This document shows, piece after piece, positions 7,342 to 55,128 of a stretch of 64,000 bases of DNA. A program made the position numbers and the translations under genes. The notes under the pieces were generated by a model that was not told the DNA's origin, searched no databases, and saw only the letters and a program-made list of their open reading frames with translations. The first letter of the stretch is position 1. Each line of letters opens with the position of its first letter. The DNA comes from Caldilineales bacterium (GTDB lineage Bacteria > Chloroflexota > Anaerolineae > JAAEKA01): contig JANWYQ010000210.1 in NCBI GenBank assembly GCA_025055015.1, positions 22,223-86,222 of the forward strand. Reading direction: 5' to 3'.

Positions 7342-8610
7342 GTGACTCTGCCTACCGATGCAGCCTACGCGGCGTCCCTGGACGCGCTGGACCCCCTGGC
7401 CGCCTGGCGCGAGCGCTTCGTCGTCGCCGACTCCGACCTGATCTACCTGGACGGCAACTCCCTGGGCCGGCTGCCCAAGGCCGCAGCGGAGCTGGCCGCG
7501 ACCTTGGTCAACGAGCAGTGGGGCCGAGACCTGATCCGCGGCTGGAACGCCGGCTGGTGGCAGGCGCCGGAGCGCATCGGCGCCAAGATCGCCCGCCTGA
7601 TCGGCGCCCAGCCGGACGAGGTGATCGTGGCCGACTCCACGTCGGTGAACTTGTTCAAGCTGGCAGTGGCGGCCCTGCGCTGCCAGCCCGGCCGCAGCCG
7701 CATCCTCACCGACGACCTCAACTTCCCCTCCGACCTGTACATCCTGCAAGGGGTGGTGAACCTGCTGGGCGGCCGGCATCGCATGGAGGTGATCCCCTCG
7801 CCCGACGGCGTCCACGGCCCAGAGGACGCGCTGCTGGGCCGGCTGGACGAGGACGTCGCCCTGGTCACCCTCTCGCACACGGCCTTTAAGAGCGGCTTCG
7901 TCTACGACATGGCCAAGGTGACGGCCGCCGCCCACGCAGCAGGAGCCCTGACCCTGTGGGACCTGAGCCATTCGGTGGGCGCGGTGCCCGTGGACTTGAA
8001 CGGGGCCAAGGCCGATCTGGCTGTGGGCTGCACCTACAAATATCTCAACGGCGGCCCCGGCGCGCCGGCCTTCCTCTACGTGCGCCGCGACCTGCAGGAG
8101 GCCCTGGGCAACCCTATCTCCGGCTGGTGGGGCCAGGAGCGGCCCTTCGCCTTCGACCTGACCTATCGCCCTGCTACGGGAATGCGCCGCTTCCTCACCG
8201 GCACCATGCCTGTGCTCTCCCTGGCCTTGATCGAGCCGGGGGTGGACCTGCTGCTGGCTGCAGGCATGGAGGCCGTGCGCGCCAAGTCCGTCGCTCAAAC
8301 CGAGTACCTCATCGGCCTGTGGGAGGCCGTGTTGGCGCCGCTGGGCTTTCGTTTGAGCTCCCCGCGCGACCCTCGGCGTCGCGGCAGCCACGTTTCCTTG
8401 GGGCACGACGAGGGGTTGCGGATTGACCTGGCGCTGATCCACGACATGCAGGTGTTGCCCGACTTTCGCGCGCCCGACCACATCCGGCTGGGCGTCGCGC
8501 CCCTCTACACCAGCTACACCGACCTGCACACGGCCGTGATGCGCATGGCCGCGGTGGTGCAGGGGCGGCTGTACGAGAAGTACACGGCGGCAGCGCCGAC
8601 CGTTACTTGA
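7342..8610 (+). CDS. kynU: Kynureninase (PLP-dependent)
   Basis: Kynureninase signatures (GCTYKYLNGGPGAPAFLYV; LIYLDGNSLG; DLSHSVG). GTG start. Confidence 0.85.
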   Translation: MTLPTDAAYAASLDALDPLAAWRERFVVADSDLIYLDGNSLGRLPKAAAELAATLVNEQWGRDLIRGWNAGWWQAPERIGAKIARLIGAQPDEVIVADSTSVNLFKLAVAALRCQPGRSRILTDDLNFPSDLYILQGVVNLLGGRHRMEVIPSPDGVHGPEDALLGRLDEDVALVTLSHTAFKSGFVYDMAKVTAAAHAAGALTLWDLSHSVGAVPVDLNGAKADLAVGCTYKYLNGGPGAPAFLYVRRDLQEALGNPISGWWGQERPFAFDLTYRPATGMRRFLTGTMPVLSLALIEPGVDLLLAAGMEAVRAKSVAQTEYLIGLWEAVLAPLGFRLSSPRDPRRRGSHVSLGHDEGLRIDLALIHDMQVLPDFRAPDHIRLGVAPLYTSYTDLHTAVMRMAAVVQGRLYEKYTAAAPTVT

Positions 8611-8638
8611 CAAAGGCCGTTACCAGGTTGGCGCGTTT

Positions 8639-8667
8639 TTTTGCAGCATGGTTTGATTTGTGCTATA
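8639..8667 (+). promoter_or_regulatory. Putative promoter TTGCAG-17-TATAAG with extended -10 (TGc), driving a ~180-nt leader
   Basis: Hexamers and spacer seen in a lower-GC intergenic stretch directly after the kynU stop. Confidence 0.35.
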
Positions 8668-8845
8668 AGATGTGCGTGTTCAATGCCATTCGAGAGATGC
8701 GTGCCTTCAAGGGTGGCTGTGGTCGTTTAGCTTCTTCCTCTCGTAGTCTAAGGTTGGTGTTTCGACGCAGGTTGGGGCACCTCCTTTGGCTTTCCCTCGT
8801 CCGCTTTTCCTCTCTCATTCACTCTAGAACCAAGGAGGTATCGTC

Positions 8846-9415
8846 ATGGCAGCAGCAGAAGCGTTTGCCAGCCCTAAGCCCCTGAAGTGGTGGGTTCCCC
8901 TCGTGCAGGGCATTGTGGCCATCATCGTCGGTGTGTTGTTCCTGACCGAGCCCGGCCGCACGGCCAAGATCGCGGTTTTCGCCCTAGGCGTCTACTGGCT
9001 GGTGCTGGGGGTTCTGGACCTGCTCGGCCTCTTCCGCGACCGCACGGCCTGGGGATGGAAGCTCTTCTCCGGCATCATCGGCATCCTGGCCGGCGGCTTG
9101 ATCGTCAACGGCTTCTTGGGCGGCGCTACTGCGCTGGACCGCCTACTGACCACCGTGATGGTGGGCATGGCCCTGGCCACGGTGATCGGCGTTCTGGGCT
9201 TGATCTACGGAATCTTGCTGCTGATCTCTGGCTTCCGCGGAGGCGGGGCCGGCGCCATCATCATCGGCGTGATCACCGTGATCCTCGCCCTGATTATCCT
9301 CTTCCGTCCGCTGGCGACTGCTCTAGCGCTGCCGTTGGTCATCGGCATCTGGTTGATCATCGGCGGCATCATCTCCGTGATCCTGGCCTTTAGCCTGCGC
9401 GGCGCCCAGGCGTAG
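8846..9415 (+). CDS. DUF308/HdeD-family small polytopic membrane protein
   Basis: Six hydrophobic helices with GxxxG-rich repeats. RBS caaggaggt. Confidence 0.7.
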   Translation: MAAAEAFASPKPLKWWVPLVQGIVAIIVGVLFLTEPGRTAKIAVFALGVYWLVLGVLDLLGLFRDRTAWGWKLFSGIIGILAGGLIVNGFLGGATALDRLLTTVMVGMALATVIGVLGLIYGILLLISGFRGGGAGAIIIGVITVILALIILFRPLATALALPLVIGIWLIIGGIISVILAFSLRGAQA

Positions 9416-9568
9416 CCGCCGACACCCGTCGTATGGGTCACCGATGACAAGCAAGGAGAGGGCTGCCCGTTGCGGCTCTCTCCTTGTTGTTTACCTGCGC
9501 CGAGTCGGTTGGCACGTATCTTGGCTTGACTTCGCTCTTGTACGCTGCGAACGTGAGGAGGATTGTCT

Positions 9569-10228
9569 GTGCCTAGCGACAACTTTCTCAGCGTGATGTG
9601 CTTTGCCCTCCTGGCTCTGGTGTACGGCCTCGGGCTGACGTTCTTCGGCTATCGCCTGTTCCTGTTCTTATTGCCCATCTGGGGCTTTGTGTTCGGCTTC
9701 GTCTTCGGCGCCCAAGCGCTCCAGGCTTTGCTGGGTGAGGGCTTCTTGGTGTCGGTGACGAGCTGGATCGTTGGCTTCTTCGTCGGTGCGGTGTTCGCCA
9801 TCCTGTCGTATCTGTTCTACTTCTTCGCAGTGGGTGTCGTCGCCGGCTCTCTAGGCTACTCGCTGACCACGGGCTTCTTCACCGGGCTGCTGAACATGCG
9901 CATGAACCTGCTGGTGTGGCTCATCGCCGTGTTGGTGGCGGCCGTGGTGATCTTCATCACCTACCGCTTCAACCTGCAGAAGTACGTGGTGATCGTGGCG
10001 ACTGCCGTGCTGGGCGCTGGGTCCATCGTGGCTACCTTGGCGTGGGTCTTCCGGCCGTCGCAGGAGGCGGTGGAACGGCCCGTGCGCGCTATACTGGACG
10101 CCGGTCCTCTCCTGACGGTCTTGGCGGCGGTGTTGATCGTCGCCGGCGTTCTCGTCCAGCTTCGCGCCAACCGGTATTACACGGTCGAGGAGTACAACAA
10201 CTGGGACGCGTGGAGCCGGCCTGCGTAG
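9569..10228 (+). CDS. Hypothetical polytopic membrane protein
   Basis: Six predicted TM helices. GTG start 7 nt after gaggagg (the TTG at 9563 is too close to the SD). Confidence 0.6.
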   Translation: MPSDNFLSVMCFALLALVYGLGLTFFGYRLFLFLLPIWGFVFGFVFGAQALQALLGEGFLVSVTSWIVGFFVGAVFAILSYLFYFFAVGVVAGSLGYSLTTGFFTGLLNMRMNLLVWLIAVLVAAVVIFITYRFNLQKYVVIVATAVLGAGSIVATLAWVFRPSQEAVERPVRAILDAGPLLTVLAAVLIVAGVLVQLRANRYYTVEEYNNWDAWSRPA

Positions 10229-10298
10229 GGGCTTTCGCCAACGGTTACCAGGTCCCCTAGGGGCGGCAACAGCGACCCTTACCTGAAAGGAGTACCTT

Positions 10299-11096
10299 AT
10301 GGCTGCTAGTAGCATTGCCCTCGAGAGACAGGATACCAGCAACAACCCGGCCCTCAACCAGGAGGCCTTCAACCGCGCAACGGCTCGTGGCGGCGAAACG
10401 GCCGCCCGCATGACCGCGCGCGGCGCCTACCTGAAGACCGGCCTGCTGTTGGTGCTGACGATCCTGGCTGCGGCCTGGGGCTGGTCTCAAGTAGAGGTGG
10501 TGAGCGCCTTCGGCCGCCAGGTGGCTTATCCGCCGTCGTGGCTGTTCCTGGCCTTCGTCCTGTCCTTCGTCTTCGGCGTCCTGGGGGTGTTTGCCGGCCG
10601 CTTCATTCCCATCTTCGCTATCGGCTACGCCCTGTCCTACGGCGCGCTGCTGGGCGTGGCCTCCCACTACTACAACCTGGAGTGGAACGGCATCGTGTTG
10701 CAGGCCATCGTCGCCACGCTGGCCGTGTTCGGCGGCACGTGGCTGTTGTACAGCCTGGGCATCCTCAAGGTGACCTCTGTGTTCGCCAAGGCGGTGGCGA
10801 TCGCGATGGCCGGCCTCTTGCTGCTCTACTTCACGGCGTGGATCTTCTCTCTCTTCGGCGTGAACTTCCGCTTCCTGTCCGAGCCTACCCCGCTGGGCAT
10901 CCTCTTCGCCCTGTTCGTGGTGATCCTGGCGGCGCTGAACTTGCCGCTGGACTTCGAGTTCGTTCGTCGCGCCTCGGCTGCGGGCGCACCCAAGTACATG
11001 GAGTGGTACGCAGCCCACGGCCTGATGCTATCCATGATCTGGCTATACGTGTCTATTTTGCGGCTGCTGGCACTGTTGCGCTCTCAATCCCGCTAA
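10299..11096 (+). CDS. Bax-inhibitor-1/YccA-family membrane protein
   Basis: Seven TM helices with a BI-1-like pattern. RBS gaaaggagt. Confidence 0.65.
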   Translation: MAASSIALERQDTSNNPALNQEAFNRATARGGETAARMTARGAYLKTGLLLVLTILAAAWGWSQVEVVSAFGRQVAYPPSWLFLAFVLSFVFGVLGVFAGRFIPIFAIGYALSYGALLGVASHYYNLEWNGIVLQAIVATLAVFGGTWLLYSLGILKVTSVFAKAVAIAMAGLLLLYFTAWIFSLFGVNFRFLSEPTPLGILFALFVVILAALNLPLDFEFVRRASAAGAPKYMEWYAAHGLMLSMIWLYVSILRLLALLRSQSR

Positions 11097-11132
11097 CGCA
11101 CGGCCGGCGCCGACACAGAAGGAGGTCTCTGT

Positions 11133-11684
11133 ATGTCTGCTCTTAAGGACAAGCCCTGGTGGTTCACCCTCATCTTGGGTGTCCTGGCGGTGGTGCTAGG
11201 CCTGGTGGTGTTGTTCCAGCCGGCCCGAGCCCAAGGTCTCGTCGGCCTGTTGGCCGCAGTATATCTGACGGCCGTCGGCCTGCTACGCACGGTGGCTGCC
11301 CTGGCCGGGAAGCAGGACAGCCGTCTCCCCTTGGTGCGCGCCTTGGTGGCGTTGGGCGTCGGCGCAGCCATCATCTTGCTAAGCCTGCTCAACGCTATCA
11401 CGCCCGCCACCGGCTTCTTGCTGCTGGGCATCGGCCTGGTCGTCCTGGGCGGGCTAGGGCTGATCATCCGGTTCCCGCAGCGCAAGCAGGAGGGTTTCAC
11501 CTGGGGCCCCGTGATCATCAATGCCGTACTCCTGGGTTGGGGCCTGCTCATCCTGTTGACCGGCCCCGGCTCCACCGCTCGCATCACGGTCAGCGGTTGG
11601 GTGCTGATTGCGGTGGGCATCGTCGGCATCGTCTGGGCCTGGCTCACGCGCGAGAAGGAGGCTGCGGTGGCTGAGGCACCCTGA
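11133..11684 (+). CDS. DUF308/HdeD-family small membrane protein (paralog of 8846..9415)
   Basis: Similar repeated TM architecture. RBS gaaggaggt. Confidence 0.7.
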   Translation: MSALKDKPWWFTLILGVLAVVLGLVVLFQPARAQGLVGLLAAVYLTAVGLLRTVAALAGKQDSRLPLVRALVALGVGAAIILLSLLNAITPATGFLLLGIGLVVLGGLGLIIRFPQRKQEGFTWGPVIINAVLLGWGLLILLTGPGSTARITVSGWVLIAVGIVGIVWAWLTREKEAAVAEAP

Positions 11685-11710
11685 GCCGCAGCGTTGCCCC
11701 TCCCGGTGAG

Positions 11711-11751
11711 ACAGACAGCCCGACGCCAAGGCGCCGGGCTGTCTGTTTTGT
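11711..11751. terminator. Bidirectional rho-independent terminator (12-bp stem acagacagcccg/cgggctgtctgt + TTTTG) between convergent genes
   Basis: Perfect inverted repeat followed by a T-run. Lies between the 11684 (+) stop and the 11787 (-) stop. Confidence 0.6.
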
Positions 11752-11786
11752 GGCCGGCCTGGCGCTCCCGGTCCCCCTGGCTTTGC

Positions 11787-14126
11787 TTACTTCGCCAGCT
11801 CTGCCAAAAGCACCTGATCGCCGATGGGCTGGCCGGCGGCGTCGAAGACCGGCAGCCGCTGGCCGGTGGCGGGATCGTACAGGCCTATGAACAGCAAGTA
11901 GCGGCCGGGGGGCGGGTTCTCCTGTCGCCACTCCAGGTAGTGGAAGTCCTCGCTGAACTCCCCGGCTTGCCAGCGGCTGGTAGGGGTGAAGAAGAAGCCC
12001 GGCTCGCCGTCGTGCTGGGCCCACAGCGTTCCGTTCAGGTCCACCAGGTGCAGAAAGACCTTGTAGTCTGTGGTGGGGTGCCGCAGGGCGAGCCAGTTGA
12101 GGATCACCTCGTTGGAGCCCCCCGGACGGAGCTCCGCTGGGTCGAAGTGAAAGCCCACCAGCTGGGCCTCCTGGCCGAAGGTGACCGTGGTCGGCGTTGG
12201 GGTGTAGTCCGTAGGGGCCTGATGGCGTTGGAGCGCAGCCAGGCCGATGTAGGCCAGCAACGCCACGCCGACGAGGGCCAGCCAACGCCGGCGCCGGAGC
12301 CGGACCATCCCCACCACCCACGCGGCGGCACCCAGCGCGGTTAGCAGCCAGCCTGCGCAGCGCACCGGCGTGGCGCCGAACCGAAAGACGACCTCGTGCT
12401 GGCCGGCGGGAACATCGGCGGCCGCCAAGGCCAGGGGACCCTCGGCGCGCACGGGCGTGGGCTGGCCATCCACCGTCGCCTGCCAGCCCGGGAAGAAGAA
12501 CTGGTGGAGCTGCGCCGTCCACGGCTCGGCCGAGCGCACGGCGAAGCGCCGCTCCAGCGGCCGCTGCCGACCCGCCGTCGCCTGCACTGCCAGGGGCGCC
12601 TCTTCAGCGGCAGCCGGCCCCGCGCTCAGGAAGAACCGGTCCCGCAGGGGCAGAGCCCCCACCGGCATGTACTCGAACATCCACGGGCTGCCGTGCTCTC
12701 GCAGCCAGAGCCCGCGGTGATAGTCGTACAGCGCCAGGGTGCGGCGGTCCACGGTGGCGTCGGTGACGGGGATGTCGGTGTTGGGGTAGACGGTGTCCCC
12801 TTGCCAGGGCAGGCGCGGGAGCGCCGCGCTCATCAGCAGGCCGGCCACGGCCGAGGTCATCAACGCGGCCAGCACGGCTCCTCGGGCGCTTCGTCCTGCG
12901 GCCGACGGCGGACTTTCCGCCAGCAGCCCCGCGTAGGCGGTGAGCAGGGCCGTGGCTACGGCCGCCACCAGCTGCCAGCGCCAGGGGAACTGGAGCATCA
13001 TCAAGCCGGGCACGCGCCAGACCGGCTGCGACCACTCGGACTGCATGAACAGGGCGAAGGCCAACAGCGCCGCCCACAGGGGCATCGCCAGCTGCGCCCG
13101 CCTGGATAACCGCTTTCGCCGCGCCAGGCCCACGGCCAGACCGGCCAGCGCCAGCAGCCCCTGGGCCATCCCCAGCGGGTGCATCACGTCGGGTTGGTCC
13201 AGGATCGTGTAGCGCTGGGCCCAGGTGTGGCTGACCAGGAACGCCGGCCGGGCCATCATGCTGCGCCAGAGGGCGGTGTCGTCGGGCGCCTGGCCGGTGA
13301 GCACCTGGGGCAGCTCGACGATGGCGGGCAGCCAGTAGAACGCGCTGAGGAGGACGCCCAACAGGGCCATCAGCAGAAAGGCTCGCAGCAGATCGGGCCG
13401 CTGCGCCTTGGCCGCGGTGGCCAGCAGGAAGGCCCCCCAGGCCGTTGCCACCGGCGCAGCCAGCAGCACGGACAGGTTGTGGGTGACCACCAGCCCGGCC
13501 ACAGCCAGGCTGCCCCCTAAAGCTGCCGTCCTTTGCGGCCGGCCTTCGGCGCAGGCCGCCCTCAGCATGGCCCACAGGAGCAGCGGAATCCAGACGAAGG
13601 CGAGCTGCTCGGCCAGCGCGCCGCGCACCCAAGTGTTGGTCAGGTGGTAGGGCGCCCAGGTGTAGGCCACGGCGGCCAGCGCACCGCTCCACGGTCCCAG
13701 CAGGCTGCGGCCGAACAGGTACATGGCCGCCGCGGCCAACAGCAGGCCGGCCGCCAGCGTCAGCTCCAACGCGGTGACGTAGCCCGCGCCCAGCCAGCGA
13801 AAGACCAGCCCGGCGTAGTAGGCCAGGGGCGCGTAGAAGTTGAGCACGGGAAAGCCGTAGCCAAAGCCCTCGTCGGCCAGCCAGCGCACGTCCCAGTGGC
13901 CGGCTCGCAGCGCTAGGTCCAGGCTGTACAGCCGGAACAGGTGGTGCAGGCCGTCGTCCATCTGTTGCAGCCCCGGCTGCCACAGCGCGCGCAGGGCGGG
14001 CAGGGTCAGCAGCAAAGCCAGGAGCAGGGCTGCCCAGTCCTCGGCTCGCCAGGGGCGGCGTGGGGGGCTTTCCACCGCAAGCTCAGTAGGCATAGGGAAA
14101 AGGCGTGTGCCGTTGGTGAGTAGCAT
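11787..14126 (-). CDS. Large polytopic membrane protein, YfhO-like / GT-C-superfamily putative glycosyltransferase
   Basis: About 12 TM helices, then a soluble beta-rich region, a late TM and a C-terminal domain. Start set at an internal Met (14126; 14093 is an alternative) because the upstream part of the ORF is Arg-rich shadow sequence. Confidence 0.5.
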   Translation of the reverse strand: MLLTNGTRLFPMPTELAVESPPRRPWRAEDWAALLLALLLTLPALRALWQPGLQQMDDGLHHLFRLYSLDLALRAGHWDVRWLADEGFGYGFPVLNFYAPLAYYAGLVFRWLGAGYVTALELTLAAGLLLAAAAMYLFGRSLLGPWSGALAAVAYTWAPYHLTNTWVRGALAEQLAFVWIPLLLWAMLRAACAEGRPQRTAALGGSLAVAGLVVTHNLSVLLAAPVATAWGAFLLATAAKAQRPDLLRAFLLMALLGVLLSAFYWLPAIVELPQVLTGQAPDDTALWRSMMARPAFLVSHTWAQRYTILDQPDVMHPLGMAQGLLALAGLAVGLARRKRLSRRAQLAMPLWAALLAFALFMQSEWSQPVWRVPGLMMLQFPWRWQLVAAVATALLTAYAGLLAESPPSAAGRSARGAVLAALMTSAVAGLLMSAALPRLPWQGDTVYPNTDIPVTDATVDRRTLALYDYHRGLWLREHGSPWMFEYMPVGALPLRDRFFLSAGPAAAEEAPLAVQATAGRQRPLERRFAVRSAEPWTAQLHQFFFPGWQATVDGQPTPVRAEGPLALAAADVPAGQHEVVFRFGATPVRCAGWLLTALGAAAWVVGMVRLRRRRWLALVGVALLAYIGLAALQRHQAPTDYTPTPTTVTFGQEAQLVGFHFDPAELRPGGSNEVILNWLALRHPTTDYKVFLHLVDLNGTLWAQHDGEPGFFFTPTSRWQAGEFSEDFHYLEWRQENPPPGRYLLFIGLYDPATGQRLPVFDAAGQPIGDQVLLAELAK

Positions 14127-20822: not shown

Positions 20823-21059
20823 ATGGCCAAGGTCCACATGGCGATAGTAGATCGTCTCTACGAACAGCAGATACGCTCTCTGTCGGCTGCCGATCGCTTG
20901 CAACTGGTCTCTCGCATCATCGAAGATTTAATCGCGGACGAGCCCCGTGCCAAGCGGAGGATTACGGAGTTGCGCGGCCTGGGCAAGAGAATTTGGCAAG
21001 GTGTTGATGCCCAGCAATATGTCAACGATCTGCGCGACGAGTGGGAGCAGCGCGCATAA
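20823..21059 (+). CDS. Putative type II antitoxin (VapB-like) upstream of PIN toxin
   Basis: Small ORF 5' of and overlapping the PIN gene. TATAAT box at 20766-20771 upstream. Confidence 0.5.
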   Translation: MAKVHMAIVDRLYEQQIRSLSAADRLQLVSRIIEDLIADEPRAKRRITELRGLGKRIWQGVDAQQYVNDLRDEWEQRA

Positions 21060-21094
21060 GGCGAGTTGACGTTGCGCTCCAGGGTGTTGCTAGG

Positions 21095-21508
21095 TTGGGA
21101 GTCGACACGGCGCCATTCATCTACTATATCGAGGAGAACCCGACTTATCTAGCGCGCATCGCTCCCATCTTCTTGGCCGCCGACGCAGGTCAGATCACGT
21201 TGGTCACTTCTACCATTACAGTGGCAGAGGTATTGATCCATCCGCTGCGCTTGGGGGCCGACGATCTGCGGAGGGAATACCTCGACCTCTTCTTGAACAG
21301 CGCAAATCTGGAAATTCAGAGTATTGACATAGAGGTCGCGCAAAGGGCGGCGGAGCTGCGCGTTACTCACAATGTGCGGTTGCCTGATGCTTTGCAAATT
21401 GCGGCTGCGCTGTACGCTGGGTGTACTGCCTTTCTGACGAATGACAGGCAGCTCGGCCACGTGACCGACCTGCGCATTTTGATCGTGGACGAGCTCGAGC
21501 TTGAGTGA
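21095..21508 (+). CDS. vapC: PIN-domain toxin VapC
   Basis: PIN acidic residues ([11 protein letters not shown]..., TNDRQL). Start uncertain: TTG at 21095 preferred; the ORF track starts it at 21041. Confidence 0.6.
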
Positions 21509-24151: not shown

Positions 24152-27100
24152 GTGTTGCTCCCTCGTTGGAGACCAGAAAACGTGATCTATCGTGTCGAAG
24201 TGTCGCTCAGGCCAGGCCTCCCGGACGCGCGCGGGGCGGCGCTGCTGCGGCAGGCCGAGGCGCTGGGGGTGAGGGGGGTGCACTCCCTGGCAGTGGCCGA
24301 CCTGTACTTTCTGGCCGGCGAGCTGGACGAGGACGCCTTGCAGCGGCTGGTGGCCGAGCTCCTCCACGACCCGGTGGTGGAGGAGGCGCTGTGGCGACCT
24401 GTGTCGGCAGGCGCAGAGCCGGCAGCGCCCGCTGACGCCTGGTCCGTCGAGGTGACCTTGCTGCCCGGCGTGACCGACAGCGTGGCCGAGAGCCTGATGG
24501 CCGGCGCTGCGATGATCGGCGTCCACGGCCTGCGCCGGGCTGCCTCCGGCCGTCGCTATACGTTGACGGGGGACCTGAGCGAGGTGGACGTGCACCGAGT
24601 GGCCCGCGGCCTGTTGGCCAACGAGGTGATCCAGCGCTACTGGGTCAACCGGCCGGCGAGGCCGCCCTTCCTGGAGGATGGGCGCGACGGCGCGTCAGGG
24701 GAGGCAGATGGGGCGCCGTGGGTGGAGGTCATCCCCTTGCGGGAGGCGGACGACGCCGGCCTGCTGGCCATCAGCCAGGCGCGGCGGCTGGCCTTGGACC
24801 TGGCCGAGATGCGGGCGATCCAGGCCTACTTCCGGGCGGCGGCGCGCGAGCCCACCGACGTGGAGCTAGAGATGCTGGCCCAGACCTGGTCCGAGCACTG
24901 CGTCCACAAGACCTTCAAGGCCGTCATCGAGTACGTCGGACCGCCTCCGGGCCCGGTGGAGCCAACCAGCGCTCACCGGTCACCGCTTGCCGCTCAGCGA
25001 ATAGACGGCCTGCTCAAAACCTACATCCGCGCGGCCACGGAGAAGGTGGCCAAGCCCTGGGTGCGCTCTGCCTTCGTGGACAACGCCGGCATCGTGGCCT
25101 ACGACGACCGGTTCGACGTGGCCTTCAAGGTGGAGACCCACAACCATCCCTCGGCGTTGGAGCCCTTCGGCGGCGCCAACACCGGCGTGGGCGGCGTGGT
25201 CCGGGACATCATCGGCGTCAGCGCGCGGCCGATCGCCAACACCGACGTCCTGTTTTTCGGCCCGCGCGACCTGCCCTGGGAGCAGCTCCCGGCCGGCGTG
25301 TTGCACCCGCGGCGCATCGCCGACGGCGTGGTCGCCGGCATCGAGGACTACGGCAACAAGATGGGCATCCCCACGGTCAACGGCGCCATCTTCACCGACC
25401 CTGGCTACACGGCCAACCCGCTGGTGTTCTGCGGCTGCGTGGGCATCCTGCCTCACGGCTCCCACCGCACCCAGCCCCAGCCGGGCGATCTGGTGGTGGT
25501 GATCGGCGGCCGCACCGGCCGCGACGGCCTGCGCGGCGCTACCTTCTCCTCCATGGAGATGGACCACCAGACGGGGGAGATCGCCAGCAGCGCGGTGCAG
25601 ATCGGCCACCCGATCCACGAGAAGCAGGTGCTGGAAGCGGTGCTGCAGGCGCGGGACGAGGGGCTGTACAACGCCATCACCGACTGCGGCGCAGGCGGGC
25701 TCTCCTCGGCCATCGGCGAGATGGCCAAGGCGCTGGGCGCGGTGGTGCACCTGGAGCGGGCGCCGTTGAAGTACACCGGCCTGCGGCCGTGGGAGATCTG
25801 GCTCAGCGAGGCGCAGGAGCGGATGGTGCTGGCCGTGCCGCCCGCCCGATGGCCGCGCTTCCAGGCCATCTGCGCAGGGCTGGACGTGGAGGCCACGGCC
25901 TTGGGCGAGTTCACTGGCGATGGCCGTCTGCGCATCTTCTACGGCGAGCACCTGGTGGGCGACGTGGACGTGGCCTTCCTGCACGATGGCATCCCGCAGC
26001 GGCAGCTCAGGGCGGAGTGGCGCCCTGGTCAATGGTCAATGGTCAATGGTCAATGGCCAATGGTCAATGGCCGATGGTCAATGGCCAATGGTCAATGGCC
26101 GATGGTCAATGGCCAATGGTCAATGGCCAATTTGACGGAGGTGCTGGTGGCGCTGCTGGGCATGCCGGAGACGCGCAGCAAGGAGCCTGTGGTGCGGCAG
26201 TACGACCACGAGGTGCAGGGCGGCACCGTGGTCAAGCCCTTGGTGGGCGCGGGGAACGCCGGGCCCGGCGACGCCGCCGTCCTGATCCCGCTGGACGTCC
26301 TGCGTCGAGCGGCGAGCGGTGAACCGTCTGCGGTGAAGCGTGAGGCTGTGCGCGGGATCGCGTTGGCCGTCGGCGCCAACCCCTTCTACACGGCGCTGGA
26401 CCCCTACTGCATGGCCTGGGCGGCAGTGGACGAGGCGGTGCGCAACGTGGTGGCGGTGGGCGCGGACCCCGACCAGGTGTCCCTGCTGGACAACTTCTCC
26501 TGGGGCAATCCTAACCTGCCCGACCGGCTGGGCAGCCTGGTGCGCTGCGTGCAGGGCTGCCACGACGCGGCCGTGGCCTATGCCGCGCCTTTCATCAGCG
26601 GCAAGGACAGCCTGAACAACGAGTACACCGGCGCGGACGGCCAGAAGCACGCCATTCCCGGCACCCTGGTGATCTCGGCCCTGGGCATCGTGCCGGACGC
26701 CGGCCGCACCGTGACCATGGACCTGAAGCGCGCCGGCGACTGGCTGTACATCGTCGGCCTGACGCGCGGGGAGCTGGGCGGGTCGAGCTGGTTGCGCCGC
26801 TTCGGCGCCGCTGCAGTGGGCGTTCCGCCCCAGCCGCCCACGGACGCCCTCGACCTGTATCGCCGCTTGCACCGGGCTATCCGCCAGGGGCTAGTGCAGG
26901 CCTGCCACGACTGCTCCGAGGGAGGCCTGGCCGTGGCCGCGGCCGAGATGGCGCTGGCCGGCGGGCTCGGCCTGGAGCTGCGCCTGGCCGCGGTTCCCCG
27001 CACGGCCGAGGCCGACAGCGACGCCGTCGTCGCTTTCTGCGAGTCCCTGGGCCGGCTGCTGGTGGCCGTGCGCCCCTCCGCCTCCGACGCCTTCGAGGCC

Positions 27101-27235
27101 CTGCTGGCCGGCCACCCTGTGGCCCGCATCGGCCGCGTGCGCAGCGACAACAGGATCGTCGTGACAGGCCTAGGCGGCCAGCCGGTCATCGAAACCGATC
27201 TGACCGCCGTGGAAAAAGCCTGGCGCAGCGAGTGA
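24152..27235 (+). CDS. purL: FGAM synthase subunit PurL with two fused N-terminal PurS-like domains (PurS-PurS-PurL)
   Basis: Two ~85-aa PurS-like repeats followed by PurL motifs (SEHCVHKTF, DCGAGGLSSAIGEMA, duplicated AIRS-like halves). Contains an in-frame heptamer repeat (see repeat feature). Confidence 0.85.
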   Translation: MLLPRWRPENVIYRVEVSLRPGLPDARGAALLRQAEALGVRGVHSLAVADLYFLAGELDEDALQRLVAELLHDPVVEEALWRPVSAGAEPAAPADAWSVEVTLLPGVTDSVAESLMAGAAMIGVHGLRRAASGRRYTLTGDLSEVDVHRVARGLLANEVIQRYWVNRPARPPFLEDGRDGASGEADGAPWVEVIPLREADDAGLLAISQARRLALDLAEMRAIQAYFRAAAREPTDVELEMLAQTWSEHCVHKTFKAVIEYVGPPPGPVEPTSAHRSPLAAQRIDGLLKTYIRAATEKVAKPWVRSAFVDNAGIVAYDDRFDVAFKVETHNHPSALEPFGGANTGVGGVVRDIIGVSARPIANTDVLFFGPRDLPWEQLPAGVLHPRRIADGVVAGIEDYGNKMGIPTVNGAIFTDPGYTANPLVFCGCVGILPHGSHRTQPQPGDLVVVIGGRTGRDGLRGATFSSMEMDHQTGEIASSAVQIGHPIHEKQVLEAVLQARDEGLYNAITDCGAGGLSSAIGEMAKALGAVVHLERAPLKYTGLRPWEIWLSEAQERMVLAVPPARWPRFQAICAGLDVEATALGEFTGDGRLRIFYGEHLVGDVDVAFLHDGIPQRQLRAEWRPGQWSMVNGQWPMVNGRWSMANGQWPMVNGQWSMANLTEVLVALLGMPETRSKEPVVRQYDHEVQGGTVVKPLVGAGNAGPGDAAVLIPLDVLRRAASGEPSAVKREAVRGIALAVGANPFYTALDPYCMAWAAVDEAVRNVVAVGADPDQVSLLDNFSWGNPNLPDRLGSLVRCVQGCHDAAVAYAAPFISGKDSLNNEYTGADGQKHAIPGTLVISALGIVPDAGRTVTMDLKRAGDWLYIVGLTRGELGGSSWLRRFGAAAVGVPPQPPTDALDLYRRLHRAIRQGLVQACHDCSEGGLAVAAAEMALAGGLGLELRLAAVPRTAEADSDAVVAFCESLGRLLVAVRPSASDAFEALLAGHPVARIGRVRSDNRIVVTGLGGQPVIETDLTAVEKAWRSE
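26016..26120 (+). repeat. 15 x 7-bp tandem repeat (TGGTCAA/TGGCCAA/TGGCCGA), in frame within the purL inter-domain linker
   Basis: 105 bp of perfect 7-nt periodicity encoding GQWSMVN/GQWPMVN x5. Confidence 0.9.
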
Positions 27236-27320
27236 CGGCCATTGCGTAACCCGGAACCGCAACCACTCTGCTGATAGCACCATCGTTGCCCTAGTCCCGC
27301 GTGGCGCCTAGCTTGTCCCT

Positions 27321-27348
27321 GGTTACCGTTCACCGCTCACCGTTCAGC
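27321..27348. repeat. Heptamer repeat GTTCACC-like (4 units) in the purL-purQ intergenic region
   Basis: ggttaccgttcaccgctcaccgttcagc. Confidence 0.55.
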
Positions 27349-27352
27349 GATT

Positions 27353-28186
27353 ATGCTCCCACCCATCCTGATCCTCCATGCCACCGGCACCAACCGCGAC
27401 CGCGAGGCGGCGTGGGCGTGTGAGCTGGCCGGCGGCGCGCCGGAGATCGTGCACATGAACCAGCTCCTGGCCGGCGAGCGCCGCCTGATGGACTACCGCA
27501 TGCTGGTGTTACCCGGCGGCTTCAGCTACGGCGACGACCTGGGCGCGGGCAAGCTGTGGGCCGTGGCCCTGCGCCATGGCCTGGGCGACGGGCTGGAAGC
27601 CTTTGTGGCCGCCGGCCGGCCGGTGTTGGGCATCTGCAACGGCTTCCAGGCCCTGGTCAAGGCCGGCCTGTTGCCTGCCCTTCGCGACATGGAGCCTTTG
27701 TCCAATCTATCCATCTCTCCATCTACCAACCAACAAGCCACCCTCACCCGCAACGACTCGGGCCGCTTCGAGTGCCGTTGGGTCTACCTGCAGCCGCAGG
27801 CCGGCAGCCCGTGCGTGTTCACCCAAGGGCTCCACGAGCCGATTTACTGCCCGGTGGCCCACGGCGAGGGCAAGTTCGTGGCGCGGGACAAGGCCACCCT
27901 GGCCGCCATCGAGGCACAGGGGCTGGTGGCGCTGCGCTACGCGCGCGAGCCGCACGCGGCTGAGGCCGCCGCTGCCGAGGGGGTGGAATACCCCTGGAAC
28001 CCCAACGGCTCGCAGAACGACATCGCCGGCGTGTGCAACCCGGCCGGCAACGTCTTCGGCCTGATGCCGCATCCGGAGGACCACATCGTGCCCCACCAAC
28101 ATCCGCGCGCCCACCGTGGCGAGCACGGGTGTCTGGGCTTGCCGCTGTTCGTCAACGGCGTGCGCTACGCCGCGGAGGTTGGTTGA
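27353..28186 (+). CDS. purQ: FGAM synthase glutaminase subunit PurQ (class I GATase)
   Basis: LPGGFSYGDDL, GICNGFQ (Cys nucleophile), HPE motif. Contains a low-GC ~50-nt insertion at 27699-27750 with 7-nt periodicity. Confidence 0.85.
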   Translation: MLPPILILHATGTNRDREAAWACELAGGAPEIVHMNQLLAGERRLMDYRMLVLPGGFSYGDDLGAGKLWAVALRHGLGDGLEAFVAAGRPVLGICNGFQALVKAGLLPALRDMEPLSNLSISPSTNQQATLTRNDSGRFECRWVYLQPQAGSPCVFTQGLHEPIYCPVAHGEGKFVARDKATLAAIEAQGLVALRYAREPHAAEAAAAEGVEYPWNPNGSQNDIAGVCNPAGNVFGLMPHPEDHIVPHQHPRAHRGEHGCLGLPLFVNGVRYAAEVG

Positions 28187-31491: not shown

Positions 31492-31728
31492 ATGACAGTT
31501 ACTGTGTCTGTTTACGAGGCAAAGGCCCTGTTTTCTGAGCTTTTGGATCGCGTGGTCGCCGGCGAAGAGGTACTTATCGCCGATGCCGGGAAGCCTGTAG
31601 CCCGCCTGATGCCGTTCGTCGAGCAGCCGACACAAAGAACACCAGGCACGGCGATAGGCAAGATCACCATAGCCCCAGATTTCGACGATCCCTTGCCTGA
31701 CGAGATTTTGGACCTCTTCGAGGCATGA
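31492..31728 (+). CDS. Type II antitoxin, Phd/YefM-like
   Basis: MTVTVSVYEAKALFSELLDRV...PVARLMP fits the Phd/YefM fold. Stop overlaps the vapC start (ATGA). Confidence 0.55.
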   Translation: MTVTVSVYEAKALFSELLDRVVAGEEVLIADAGKPVARLMPFVEQPTQRTPGTAIGKITIAPDFDDPLPDEILDLFEA

Positions 31729-32111
31729 GAGCGTTGCTAGACACGCACGCGTTTCTGTGGTGGATCACCAATGATCCACGGCTAACTGCACGCGTGCAGA
31801 AGACCGTCCAGAACCCTGGAAACCTCATCTTCTTGAGCGCAGCTAGCGGATGGGAGCTTGCTATTAAAGCGAGCATCGGCAAACTTCATGTGTCTCAAGA
31901 TCTCGATACGTTTATCAGTGAACAGTTGACGCTCAACCGCATTGATGTGCTGCCCGTACTGATGAGCCACGCTCTCTTCGTGCGCAAATTGCCCGCGCAC
32001 CACAGAGACCCCTTTGATCGTTTGTTGGTGGCCCAGAGCCTTGTTGAAGGGATGCCCCTGATAACAAGCGATCCGCTAATCGCGAAATACTCCGTGCAGG
32101 TGATCTGGTAG
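31725..32111 (+). CDS. vapC: PIN-domain toxin VapC
   Basis: LLDTHAFLWW..., SAASGWELAIK, and ITSD motifs of VapC. Confidence 0.75.
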   Translation: MRALLDTHAFLWWITNDPRLTARVQKTVQNPGNLIFLSAASGWELAIKASIGKLHVSQDLDTFISEQLTLNRIDVLPVLMSHALFVRKLPAHHRDPFDRLLVAQSLVEGMPLITSDPLIAKYSVQVIW

Positions 32112-33464: not shown

Positions 33465-34037
33465 ATGTACGATGGGCCGGCAGAGCTGTTGACCTACTTC
33501 CCGGACTTCCGCTACTGGCTGGTGGATCTCAGCCAGTTCACCGACCAGGAGGTCCGCGGCGAGGCGGTCTTGCGGCTGGTCCTCCTGGCCATGAAGCATG
33601 TCAACGACCCAGACGGCATCCGTCGGGTCTGCGAGATCTTCGACCTAATGGAGCGGCTGTGGCAGACGGAGAGCACGGCGGAGGTCGTAGCCTTGGTCTT
33701 GCGCTATCTCGCCACAGGCAGCACCACCATGACGGAAGCAGACCTGCGAGACGCCATGGAGCAACATTGGCCCGAAGGAGTGACGATTATGGCAACGATA
33801 GCAGACAATTGGTTGCGGCAGGGCATTCAGCAAGGCATTCTGCAAGGGCGACGTGAGGGCTTGATTGACGCGATCAGCCTGGGCATCCGCCTGCGCTTCG
33901 GCAAAGAAGGGCTGCCGCTCCTGCCCGAAATCCGCAGGATCGAGGACATCGCGGTGTTGGAGGCCATCTACGACAGCTTTGAAACCATCGAAAGCCTCGA
34001 CGACCTGCGGCGCATCTACGCCCGACCCCAGCCATGA
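33465..34037 (+). pseudogene. Rpn/YhgA-like putative transposase, C-terminal portion only (DUF4351-like); N-terminal PD-(D/E)XK domain missing
   Basis: C-terminal ...WLRQGIQQGILQGRREGLIDAISLGIRLRFG... resembles Rpn-family tails. The ORF is ~190 aa versus ~300 for intact members. Wedged between purD and purM. Confidence 0.4.
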
Positions 34038-35057: not shown

Positions 35058-35675
35058 ATGCCCCCTCGCCTCGCCGTTCTCATCTCCGGCAGCGGCACCA
35101 ACCTGCAGGCCATCATGGACGCCATCGCAGCTGGCCGGCTCGACGCACAGATCGTGGTCGTGGTGTCCAACCGCCGCGACGCCTATGGCCTGGTGCGCGC
35201 GGGGCGGGCCGGCATTCCTACCCTCTACGTTCCCCTCAAGCCCTACACCGAGGCAGGCCGGCCGCGCGCGGACTACGACGCCGACCTGGCCGAGCGGGTG
35301 GCGGCCTACGCGCCCGACCTGGTGGTGTTGGCCGGCTGGATGCACGTGCTCAGCCCGTCCTTCCTGGATCGCTTTCCCGGCCGCGTTCTCAACCTGCACC
35401 CGGCGCTGCCCGGCCAGTTCCCCGGCACCCATGCCATCCAGCGCGCGTTCGAAGCTTTCCGGCGGGGGGAGATTGACCACACCGGCGTCATGGTCCACTG
35501 GGTGGTGCCCGAGGTGGATGCCGGGCCGGTGATCGCCAGCGAGGTTGTCCCCATCCTCCCCACGGACACGGTGGACGACCTGGAGGCGCGTGTCCACGCC
35601 GTCGAGCATCGCCTGTTGGTGGAGGCTATCCGCCGCGCGTTGGGGGAGCGGTGGTCGGTGAACGGTGAACGGTGA
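35058..35675 (+). CDS. purN: GAR formyltransferase PurN
   Basis: LISGSGTNL, NLHPALPG..G, HxV..ExDxGP motifs. C-terminal tail (GERWSVNGER) is encoded by heptamer repeats. Confidence 0.85.
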   Translation: MPPRLAVLISGSGTNLQAIMDAIAAGRLDAQIVVVVSNRRDAYGLVRAGRAGIPTLYVPLKPYTEAGRPRADYDADLAERVAAYAPDLVVLAGWMHVLSPSFLDRFPGRVLNLHPALPGQFPGTHAIQRAFEAFRRGEIDHTGVMVHWVVPEVDAGPVIASEVVPILPTDTVDDLEARVHAVEHRLLVEAIRRALGERWSVNGER

Positions 35676-35692
35676 ACGGTAAACGCTGAACG
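35654..35692. repeat. Heptamer repeat GGTGAAC x ~5 spanning the purN stop codon
   Basis: ggtggtcggtgaacggtgaacggtgaacggtaaacgctgaacgg. Confidence 0.7.
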
Positions 35693-35693
35693 G

Positions 35694-35935
35694 TTTTTGT
35701 GGAGTGCGCACCCCCAGGTGCGCACGGGGGTTGGGTTTTGCGAAGTGCGCCCTCCAGGTGCGCGCCAGCCCCTAGGTTTTCGGAGTGCGCACCCCTAGGT
35801 GCGCAGGGGGGCTGGGTTTTGTGGAGTGCGCTCCCTGGGTCCGCGCCAGCCCCTAGGTTTTCGGAGTGCGCCCCCCAGGTGAGCACGGAAAGGTTGCACC
35901 CCTAGGTGCGCACGGGAGGGTTGCCCCCGTCTTGC
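35694..35935. repeat. Tandem array of ~6 degenerate 41-bp units, each with a 9-bp GC hairpin (GTGCGCACC-cccA-GGTGCGCAC) and a TTTT tract; REP/BIME-like
   Basis: Units TTTTGyGGAGTGCGCnCCCCyAGGTGCGCrsGGGsyGG repeated head-to-tail between convergent purN and the exonuclease gene. Confidence 0.75.
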
Positions 35936-45603: not shown

Positions 45604-46390
45604 ACCCGTTCTCAAGCACCAACTCGGCGAAGGGGAGGGCAAAGGCCACCGGCCGCGCCGGCCCGCGGCAGTTGAACACCATGCCGTCCAGCGCCGTCAT
45701 GGCGGCCACCCGGCTGAACAGGTCCCGGCCACTGAGCTCCAGCATGGACAGCAGCGCCTTGGCATCCTCGCTCTCGCCCTCCAGGAAGGCTTCCACGGCG
45801 TCCCGGTGGGTGAAGATCGCCAGCAGCCGGCGGTCGCGGTCGTCGGGCGCCAAAGCCAGGAAGGTGCGCCCCTCCGCCGTCCACAACACCACGAGGTAGT
45901 GGGGGTAGTCCAGCACCAGGGAGAAGGCGTTGGGGACCTCCTCCCCCGCGCGCAGCGCCACCAGCGCTTGCTCCACTTGGACGGCCTGGGCCATGGCCGC
46001 CAAGGCGGGAAAGCTCTGCTTGCCGTAGCTGAGCCGCCACGGGGAGGCGGGGTCAATCTCCACGTAGTCGAATTGGTCCAGGGGCAGAGCGTTGATGGCC
46101 CACGCGCCGTCGGCGGTGAGCAGGAGCGCGCCCGACGGGCTCTCGCCCGTGGCCTGGCAGAAGGCGGCGTAGGCGTCGGCGTCGGAGAATAGGTAAAAGC
46201 GGCGAATACCGCCGGGGTCCTCGCTGTAGCGCAGGCGCACCCCCTCGCTGCCCGTGGGCTCGCCTTCCGCCACCCGCGAGACCGGCACCAGCCACTCGCG
46301 GTAGGACAGGAGGCGGCGCATGAGTTGCGCGCCGGTGATCTGTTGGGACTGCCAGGCAGCGATGGCTTCTTGAACAGGCTTCTTGGGCAT
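45602..46390 (-). CDS. Hypothetical cytoplasmic protein (SseB-like?)
   Basis: Start at MPKKPVQ, with RBS gaaggagac on the minus strand. Confidence 0.45.
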   Translation of the reverse strand: MPKKPVQEAIAAWQSQQITGAQLMRRLLSYREWLVPVSRVAEGEPTGSEGVRLRYSEDPGGIRRFYLFSDADAYAAFCQATGESPSGALLLTADGAWAINALPLDQFDYVEIDPASPWRLSYGKQSFPALAAMAQAVQVEQALVALRAGEEVPNAFSLVLDYPHYLVVLWTAEGRTFLALAPDDRDRRLLAIFTHRDAVEAFLEGESEDAKALLSMLELSGRDLFSRVAAMTALDGMVFNCRGPARPVAFALPFAELVLENG

Positions 46391-46515
46391 GGACGTGTCT
46401 CCTTCGGCGATCAGAGGGGAAAAGCACAGATCAATCAAGGGCGCCCATGTGAACACGCTCTCGGCCCTGGCCGACACGTCATGCCGCAAGGTGCGAGAGG
46501 CGCAGACGCAACGGG

Positions 46516-47463
46516 CTAGGTCTGCTCTTTGGGAGCGGGCTCGTCACCCGAGGGCGGCGCCGACTCCAGGAGCTGGTAGATGTCCGCAGGTTCGTCGGCC
46601 GAGGTCTCCGGCTGTGGTGGCTTCGGCGCGACGGGCGCTGCCGGCTCGACCAGGGTGATAGGCGCACGGGCAAAGCGCGCCGGCTGCGGCGCTGGCTCGG
46701 CCATCGCATGGACCTCGGCGCCGGGCGCGGGCGCGACCTCTGCGGGAGCCGGCTCGGCCGGCAGCGCTACAGGCGCCGGCTCCTTGCCCGACCGGGTAAT
46801 GGCCACCACGAACAGGGCTACTCCCAGCCCGATCACCAACAGCGGCCACAGGTTCACCAGCGCCTCCATGGTGGGATAGCGCTGGCGCAGGCCGCTGGCC
46901 AGGCTCACCAGCGCCATGGCGGCCAAGACGGCCGTCGGCACCAGCGGCCAGTGGCCGGTGCTCCGCTCCGGCGTGAGCAGGTAGATCAGCGCAAAGGTGA
47001 GGCTCAGGCCGCCGAACATCACCGCGCCCAGGAAAGGAGGCGTGACGCCTGCGTCGTTCAGCACCACCATGGCCACCAGCACCAGCAGCGCGCCGAAGGG
47101 GATCAGCCCCCACCAGCGCTCTCGACGGTTGGTGAAGTAGATCACGGCAAAGGCCAGCGCCAGCGCCACGAAGAGCACCACGCCCATCCAGACGAAGGGC
47201 ACTTGGCGCCAATACAGGTAGACCAGGCCCCCCACCGCCAACAGAGTAAATCCGGGGATCACCAGCCACCAGCTTTGGCGCCGAAAGACCATGTAGGCGA
47301 CCAGGTAGCCCAGGCCGGCCACGGCAAACAGGCCGGCCGCCACCAGGGCCATGGTCTGCGCGTTGGCCGAGAAGACGCCGAAGTTCCAGAGCAGGAACAG
47401 CAGGCCGACCACCACCAGGAGGATGCCGGCCAAGATGGGGTTGCGAACGCTCTTAGACTGCAT
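46516..47463 (-). CDS. Polytopic membrane protein with internal TM-pair repeats and Pro/Ala-rich C-terminal tail
   Basis: ~8 TM helices in repeated pairs. C-terminus is PAPAEVAPAPG low complexity. Confidence 0.55.
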   Translation of the reverse strand: MQSKSVRNPILAGILLVVVGLLFLLWNFGVFSANAQTMALVAAGLFAVAGLGYLVAYMVFRRQSWWLVIPGFTLLAVGGLVYLYWRQVPFVWMGVVLFVALALAFAVIYFTNRRERWWGLIPFGALLVLVAMVVLNDAGVTPPFLGAVMFGGLSLTFALIYLLTPERSTGHWPLVPTAVLAAMALVSLASGLRQRYPTMEALVNLWPLLVIGLGVALFVVAITRSGKEPAPVALPAEPAPAEVAPAPGAEVHAMAEPAPQPARFARAPITLVEPAAPVAPKPPQPETSADEPADIYQLLESAPPSGDEPAPKEQT

Positions 47464-47494
47464 GAGGGCTACACTCCTTGGATGAAACAGTCCG

Positions 47495-47809
47495 CTAGCG
47501 GCGCAGGCTGCGCCAGGCCGCGAACGCCTGCCAGGCGAACAGCAGGGCCAGCACGGCCCAGGCGGCCGTCTCCCACCAGCGCGGGCTGCTGAGGGCCAGG
47601 CCGACGCTGAAGAGCACCATGCCCAGGCCGGCCGCCGCCTGAAAGCCGGCGCTGCCCAAGGCTTGGCGCAGGCTCAGGCGGGGGGACTGGATGCGCCGCC
47701 ACCAGTCGGCGTAGCTGAAGGCCGCCAGCACCACGGCCAGGCCCAGCACCCACAGCGCGTTGCGAAAGACGCCGTACCAGTCAATCATGGTCCTAGCCCA
47801 GGTAGCCAA
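47495..47809 (-). CDS. Small 3-TM membrane protein
   Basis: Hydrophobic ORF. Overlaps the end of the upstream AlkP gene by ~17 nt. Confidence 0.4.
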   Translation of the reverse strand: MATWARTMIDWYGVFRNALWVLGLAVVLAAFSYADWWRRIQSPRLSLRQALGSAGFQAAAGLGMVLFSVGLALSSPRWWETAAWAVLALLFAWQAFAAWRSLRR

Positions 47810-49511: not shown

Positions 49512-49691
49512 GGTCAGAGGGAACGTCTGTCCGGGCTGGGCACGTCGAGGCCGGCCGGAGCCGGGGCGCAAGCCCGCTTTAACGATTAGCTGGTCAGGCG
49601 ACTGCCCGCCGCAGGCTGTGTCACGCGGCGTCGGTACTATACACGAGGGGCCGGGTTCTGCCAAGACGGCTACCTCGGCCACCGGCGGCCG

Positions 49692-52993: not shown

Positions 52994-53098
52994 ACGGAAC
53001 CAACGACGAGAAGGAGCTAGGGCCACCAATTCTAGGAGGCGGCAGAATTCGTCCAGTTCGTGAAATGCGTGGCAAGACCCAGGCTTGCGCCAGGCGGG

Positions 53099-54976: not shown

Positions 54977-55128
54977 GGGCTCGCAGTATAGCACAGCCGC
55001 AGCCGCTGGGCCAAGCGGCTGCCGCACGACCGTTGGGCAGGGGCGCGGCGGGGTTGGTGGCGCTGTGCAGGCGACGCCGCGCCGGCAAGCGCAAGCCTTG
55101 GTCGCTCCACCGCTGGCGCCGGTGCGCC

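Follow-up and report, generated by a model that had tools for sequence, protein, structure and literature searches.

Can a bacterial PurL carry its own PurS subunits, and is such a protein a step towards the single-chain form of the enzyme? The question is raised by one gene in a stretch of Caldilineales DNA (GCA_025055015.1, contig JANWYQ010000210.1, positions 22,223 to 86,222), of which the full 64 kb are called the window here. This gene, purSL, encodes a polypeptide made of a duplicated PurS module, the linker domain of formylglycinamide ribonucleotide (FGAR) amidotransferase (FGAR-AT) and a complete small-type PurL core. We consider it very probable that its product is the PurSL (mdPurL-type) subunit of formylglycinamidine ribonucleotide (FGAM) synthase (FGAR amidotransferase, EC 6.3.5.3), partnered by a separately encoded PurQ. 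An earlier interpretation made from the letters of the DNA (the sequence-only reading) had proposed that a small-type PurL is preceded in the same chain by two PurS-like domains, as a covalently tethered PurS pair, and this proposal was borne out by domain searches, internal duplication, and fold models and their structural matches.

The N-terminus of the purSL product is a PurS pair, as four lines of evidence indicate. The longest open reading frame (ORF) of the gene (24152..27235, forward strand, 1,027 aa) opens with a GTG at 24152, and Pfam and NCBIfam residue positions are counted from there. Judging from the sequence, the GTG at 24182 is probably the true start, giving 1,017 aa. It is favored by a GGAG box about 9 nt before it and by homologs and the Prokaryotic Genome Annotation Pipeline protein P0053, which begin with "MIYRVEV"; residues of the structure models are counted from this codon. 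Against a cut-off of 22.2 bits, the Pfam PurS model PF02700 gave the full protein 41.4 bits and its N-terminal 203 aa 47.8 bits, matching in two stretches, the better at residues 14–78, which is the outcome of the profile check that had been suggested for this region. Two NCBIfam PurS models, PRK06423 and PRK05974, placed the second copy at residues 98–167. The two N-terminal halves were mutually 34% identical over 65 residues (pairwise E = 1e-10), which indicates an internal duplication. A phmmer search of the N-terminus against the PDB gave only a marginal PurS match (E = 0.38), and profile and structure comparisons were needed.

Structure prediction pointed in the same direction. The AlphaFold2 model of the N-terminal 193 residues (predicted local distance difference test, pLDDT, 88; predicted template modeling score 0.81) contained two successive beta-alpha-beta-beta-alpha-beta units at residues 2–73 and 86–155, the first with pLDDT above 90, followed by a disordered connector with pLDDT below 50 at residues 167–181 (166–177 in the full-length model). 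The top Foldseek matches of this model in the PDB were the N-domains of Salmonella and human large PurL (154–181 columns, E = 1e-7 to 1e-5), and the next were single PurS subunits (1twj, 2yx5, 1gtd, 1vq3, and 3d54_B), each over about 75 columns with target-normalized template modeling (TM) scores of 0.5–0.8. The full-length model (mean pLDDT 74.8) matched large PurL over about 1,100 columns with a query-normalized TM score of 0.61–0.64, and its next best match was the small PurL of Thermus. Both PurS units thus lie within the PurL chain, unlike the free PurS (about 80 aa) of the three-protein system, and a six-frame hidden Markov model search of the 64-kb window found no other PurS-like ORF.

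The remainder of the protein is a small-type PurL without glutaminase. The core passed TIGR01736 (567.4 bits, cut-off 525.75), with the alignment reaching residue 1025, and the AIRS and AIRS_C domains were both found twice by Pfam. The large-PurL models TIGR01735, PRK05297, and TIGR01857 gave 258.7, 285.1, and 282.9 bits, none reaching its cut-off (1123, 783, and 1057). The purSL ORF ends at 27235 and the GATase_5 domain sits in the next ORF, so the product has no C-terminal glutaminase domain. That next ORF is purQ (GATase_5 E = 1.6e-75; TIGR01737 181.8 bits, cut-off 177.8), in which "GICNGFQ" and "MPHPE" line up with Salmonella PurL at its catalytic Cys and His/Glu, indicating an intact triad. 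PurQ is therefore separate, as the sequence-only reading had stated, although the spacer measures 117 nt and not 118 nt. The features of the locus are listed in the table.

Table. Features of the purSL-purQ locus, in window positions. Domain residue numbers are those of the search that gave them.
Feature	Position	Strand	Description and basis
purSL (PurS-PurS-linker-PurL fusion)	24182..27235	+	1,017 aa from the likely GTG start; ORF call, start evidence, domain searches
PurS-like domain 1	24185..24400	+	residues 2–73 from 24182; best PF02700 stretch, fold model, PurS structure matches
PurS-like domain 2	24437..24646	+	residues 86–155 from 24182; NCBIfam PRK06423/PRK05974, 34% identity to domain 1, second fold unit
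Flexible connector, PurS pair to FGAR-AT linker domain	24647..24766	+	low pLDDT in both models
FGAR-AT linker domain (PF18072), usual PurL N-terminus	24767..24910	+	E = 1.7e-18, residues 206–253 (from 24152)
First AIRS/AIRS_C half of FGAM synthetase core	25079..25942	+	Pfam: AIRS residues 310–432, AIRS_C 443–597
In-frame heptanucleotide array	26026..26131	+	(TGGTCAA/TGGCCAA) x 15 = 105 nt; connector between the two PurL halves; Tandem Repeats Finder
Second AIRS/AIRS_C-like half of PurL core	26132..27232	+	second stretches of PF00586 and PF02769; PF22689 at residues 731–844
purSL-purQ spacer	27236..27352	+	117 nt; imperfect heptamer array ACCGTTC x 3.1 at 27325–27346
purQ, separate glutaminase subunit	27353..28186	+	277 aa; Cys-His-Glu triad intact

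The proposed role follows the three-protein enzyme and large PurL. In the three-protein FGAM synthase, the PurL:PurQ:PurS stoichiometry is 1:1:2 (PMC10912719), and one tandem PurS per PurL fits this ratio. By analogy, the tandem module would stand in for the free PurS dimer, docking on the PurL core as the N-domain of large PurL does and helping to form and couple the PurQ interface. PurQ would hydrolyze glutamine and hand ammonia to the ATP-activated FGAR intermediate in PurL. Tethering would set PurS:PurL at 2:1, and a separate purS gene would no longer be needed.

Several observations weigh against this assignment. The function of every bacterial PurSL is a prediction. The full-length model is moderately confident, with pLDDT below 50 in parts of the first AIRS domain, and the way in which it docks the PurS pair is suggestive at most. 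The absence of a stand-alone purS applies to the 64-kb window. Additionally, in a near-identical genome, purSL is frameshifted at the heptamer array, which could reflect either a gene that is sometimes broken or a mistake in assembly. This genome, GCA_033578055.1 (locus L004; hereafter the twin), is an Anaerolineae metagenome-assembled genome (MAG) in GenBank and is 99.75% identical over 21.9 kb.

The PurSL architecture is already known: it was reported from archaea in 2011, and Chloroflexota commonly have it. Brown et al. 2011 (Biol Direct 6:63, PMC3261824) reported an intermediate PurL form, named "mdPurL", in six methanogens, with about 200 extra N-terminal residues, a separate purQ, and purS missing from five of the six genomes. 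The sequence-only reading had taken two architectures to be the only established ones; this premise fails, since both mdPurL and a Joint Genome Institute (JGI) annotation, "phosphoribosylformylglycinamidine synthase subunit PurSL", precede it. Like purSL, mdPurL carries its extension where large PurL has the PurS-like domain, but the host here is bacterial (Anaerolineae) and the N-terminus scores clearly as two PurS domains, whereas the archaeal extension was reported with low PurS identity (PMC3261824). Our literature search found no description of a bacterial PurS-PurL fusion, and the term "PurSL" gave one irrelevant match. The JGI-named class has the same domains (PF02700 + PF18072 + PF00586 + PF02769), 59–85% identity, and a length of about 960–1,100 aa; the window's purSL belongs to this class and shows no difference of substance. 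KEGG also has a purSL orthology entry.

Compared with the better-known forms of the enzyme, purSL shares features with each. The three-protein PurL/PurQ/PurS system of Bacillus subtilis and Thermotoga maritima (PDB 3D54) has the same small-type PurL core, a separate PurQ, and two PurS per PurL, but here a single chain holds both PurS units and PurL, and there is no free purS nearby. Large PurL (Salmonella 1T3T, E. coli, and human PFAS) has the same order of PurS-pair-like N-domain, linker, and synthetase core and was the best structural match of both models of the purSL product. In contrast to large PurL, the purSL product lacks a fused glutaminase and falls far below the three family cut-offs.

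Relatives of purSL were found mainly in Anaerolineae. Nearly all of the 120 best matches listed by a full-length homolog search carry the four domains of the JGI class, are 960–1,100 aa long, and come from Anaerolineae or Chloroflexota MAGs; several bear the JGI name. Scanning a single genome for each GTDB species identified 350 genomes with a relative, mostly Anaerolineae, and we classified the best 80 loci from these. An intact PurSL with a separate purQ was present at 38 of the 80 loci (purQ adjacent in 21, further downstream in 9, and outside the locus in 8). A fully fused PurS-PurS-PurL-PurQ gene was found at 23 loci (L037, L047, L050, L052–L055, L057, L059–L061, L064, L067, L070–L073, L077, and L080–L084), while 12 loci were cut by contig ends and 7 were frameshifted or split. 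Fragments consisting of PurS plus linker and named Geobacteraceae, Syntrophaceae, and Thermodesulfobacteriota indicate that PurS-PurL fusion also occurs outside Chloroflexota. A candidate stand-alone PurS-PurS-linker protein, suggested by 130–401-aa matches to the N-terminal 233 aa, was rejected, as genomic context showed these matches to be fragments of frameshifted or contig-truncated purSL. The PurSL of MAGs labeled Hyphomicrobiaceae, Alphaproteobacteria, Myxococcota, Deltaproteobacteria, or Gemmatimonadales (L035, L042, L051, L058, L038, L040, L065, and L066) nest among those of Chloroflexota, and these cases are either mislabeled bins or transfers of the PurSL gene.

Gene arrangements in and around Chloroflexota form a local colinear series, from separate tandem purS + purL + purQ, through PurSL + purQ, to PurS-PurS-PurL-PurQ. 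Stand-alone tandem PurS proteins of about 150–170 aa made up more than 100 clusters (P0295–P0370 among the members), with names from Gemmatimonadetes and Endomicrobiia. At locus L085 (7001–10861), a tandem purS overlaps the start of a separate 809-aa purL by 4 nt, and purQ is next. In PurSL genomes, the purSL-purQ spacers are mostly 0–18 nt. The fused proteins of Chloroflexota are about 1,250–1,330 aa long, and P0122, P0140, and P0150 also have this form. They passed TIGR01736 (561–596 bits) and TIGR01737, while reaching only 409–478 bits on the three large-PurL models, all failing cut-offs of 783–1123. We placed these forms in a neighbor-joining tree of 779 core columns, with one large PurL (E. 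coli) and one unfused small PurL (L085) as outgroups. The fused forms were one group nested among PurSL forms, with a bootstrap of 17/100 for the fused group; L078, whose PurQ part is out of frame and which looks like a frameshifted fused gene, fell inside it. The unfused L085 PurL was sister to all PurSL and fused forms, and the E. coli large PurL lay far outside on a very long branch.

Whether the purSL product is an evolutionary intermediate, as the sequence-only reading had proposed, depends on the endpoint considered. As a path from the three-protein enzyme to the canonical single-chain large PurL, we regard the proposal as unlikely. Its domain order does match that of large PurL, its N-terminal pair superposes on the large-PurL N-domain, and the colinear series runs from L085 through PurSL + purQ with short spacers to the 23 fused genes grouped among PurSL. 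However, the fused Chloroflexota proteins pass the small-PurL and PurQ models and fall below every large-PurL cut-off, and the E. coli large PurL stands apart from the entire group on a very long branch. Because of these two observations, the series documents a parallel, separate fusion. The nesting itself has low bootstrap support and comes from a tree with a single large PurL and a single unfused small PurL. The proposal holds only for the local series in and around Chloroflexota, with no sign of a link to the route to canonical large PurL: a Chloroflexota-specific protein that shares its domain order with large PurL plausibly descends from PurSL, and the fused Chloroflexota forms look like an independent origin of that order, not ancestors of canonical large PurL.

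The series could also be read in the opposite direction, with a fully fused PurS-PurS-PurL-PurQ ancestor from which purQ later split off in the window's lineage. L078, within the fused group with its PurQ part out of frame, indicates that breaks of fused genes happen, at least in assemblies, and the tree is weakly supported and rooted on two outgroups. Against such a fission, the fused group is flanked on either side by PurSL forms in the tree, with the unfused L085 PurL sister to all, and spacers of 0–18 nt, typical of coupled separate genes, dominate the PurSL lineages; we consider it quite improbable. That the fusion is an artifact, with purS-purS and purL joined by a mistake in assembly or reading frame, has next to no probability in our view. 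Related long-read assemblies are full of frameshifts and purSL was called in two pieces in the twin, but the break in the twin lies at residue ~640, inside PurL and not at the PurS-PurL junction. More than 100 independent full-length proteins and 61 intact loci of different genomes share that junction, unbroken and conserved.

The heptanucleotide array inside purSL is a more unusual feature than the fusion itself. It encodes "QWSMVNGQWPMVNGRWSMANGQWPMVNGQWSMAN", a 35-residue insert between the two PurL halves, and had a Tandem Repeats Finder score of 184, with no matches in 100 shuffles. The insert is disordered in the full-length model (pLDDT below 50 at residues 619–645). In the twin, the array has 11 copies (77 nt) of the heptamer compared with 15 in the window, and the resulting frameshift splits the purSL call into pieces of 641 aa and 370 aa. 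Split purSL genes do not generally break at such arrays: only L004 and L068 do, and L014, L020, L030, L058, L063, L069, and the fragmented L001–L003 are generic frameshifts.

Period 7 was preferred both in the window, where it alone yielded at least three exact tandem copies, and across related loci. A census of 80 related loci (L005–L084; 825 kb) for exact arrays of at least three copies and periods 4 to 12 found 43 arrays of period 7, compared with 0–9 for each other period, and the repeat units differed between genomes. Thirty-one of these 43 arrays lay inside purSL or the fused gene, to which 28.9% of the sequence belongs (binomial p = 6e-9). In window residues, the arrays clustered at inter-domain connectors and loops, namely at 67–89 (the PurS1-PurS2 connector), 252–272, 610–654 (including the window's own site), 701–725, and 871–885; fused forms also had arrays at the PurL-PurQ junction and in loops of the PurQ part. 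The purSL-purQ spacer of the closest relative, L010, has 28 copies (3331–3526) of the unit found in the same spacer of the window (GTTCACC, the same unit as ACCGTTC). We found no literature on heptanucleotide repeats in Chloroflexota; the nearest known analog of these arrays is the short tandemly repeated repetitive (STRR) heptamers of filamentous cyanobacteria. It is possible, though on the whole doubtful, that Anaerolineae heptamer microsatellites prefer the connectors and loops of purSL and its fused form and the purSL-purQ spacers, where copy numbers in multiples of three would add disordered linker and others would break the frame. Such arrays could supply linkers, and perhaps the stop-codon bypass that fuses purQ, and would be a Chloroflexota counterpart of cyanobacterial STRR in an essential housekeeping gene.

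The surrounding genes form a purine operon without purS, in the order guaB-purSL-purQ-purC-purE-purF...purD...purM-purN according to gene calls on the twin contig. Based on the same calls, a PhdYeFM-antitoxin/PIN pair (~31492–32111) lies between purF and purD in the window, and a Transposase_31-like gene (~33465–34037) lies between purD and purM. A further PIN gene is located upstream of a short-chain dehydrogenase, near window 21059–21508. Downstream of purN, the stretch 35649–35928 combines another heptamer array (CGGTGAA x 5.6) with, directly after it, a 40/81-nt unit that carries GC-rich hairpins (GTGCGCACC...GGTGCGCAC) and is tandemly repeated about five times, similar in appearance to a repetitive extragenic palindromic (REP) cluster. 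Rfam matched neither a riboswitch nor any other RNA family anywhere in the window. AT skew was strongly negative at 8001–12000 (−0.32 and −0.23) and positive in several stretches of 46001–56000 (up to +0.27).

The fusion alone adds little, as it is one more bacterial case of a catalogued FGAM-synthase architecture, but it accounts for the lack of a purS gene in the purine operon. The heptamer arrays may matter for annotation, since split purL calls can result, and for the evolution of linkers. Together, stand-alone tandem PurS, PurSL, and the Chloroflexota-specific full fusion provide a clean natural series for studying how the large-PurL domain order can arise repeatedly.

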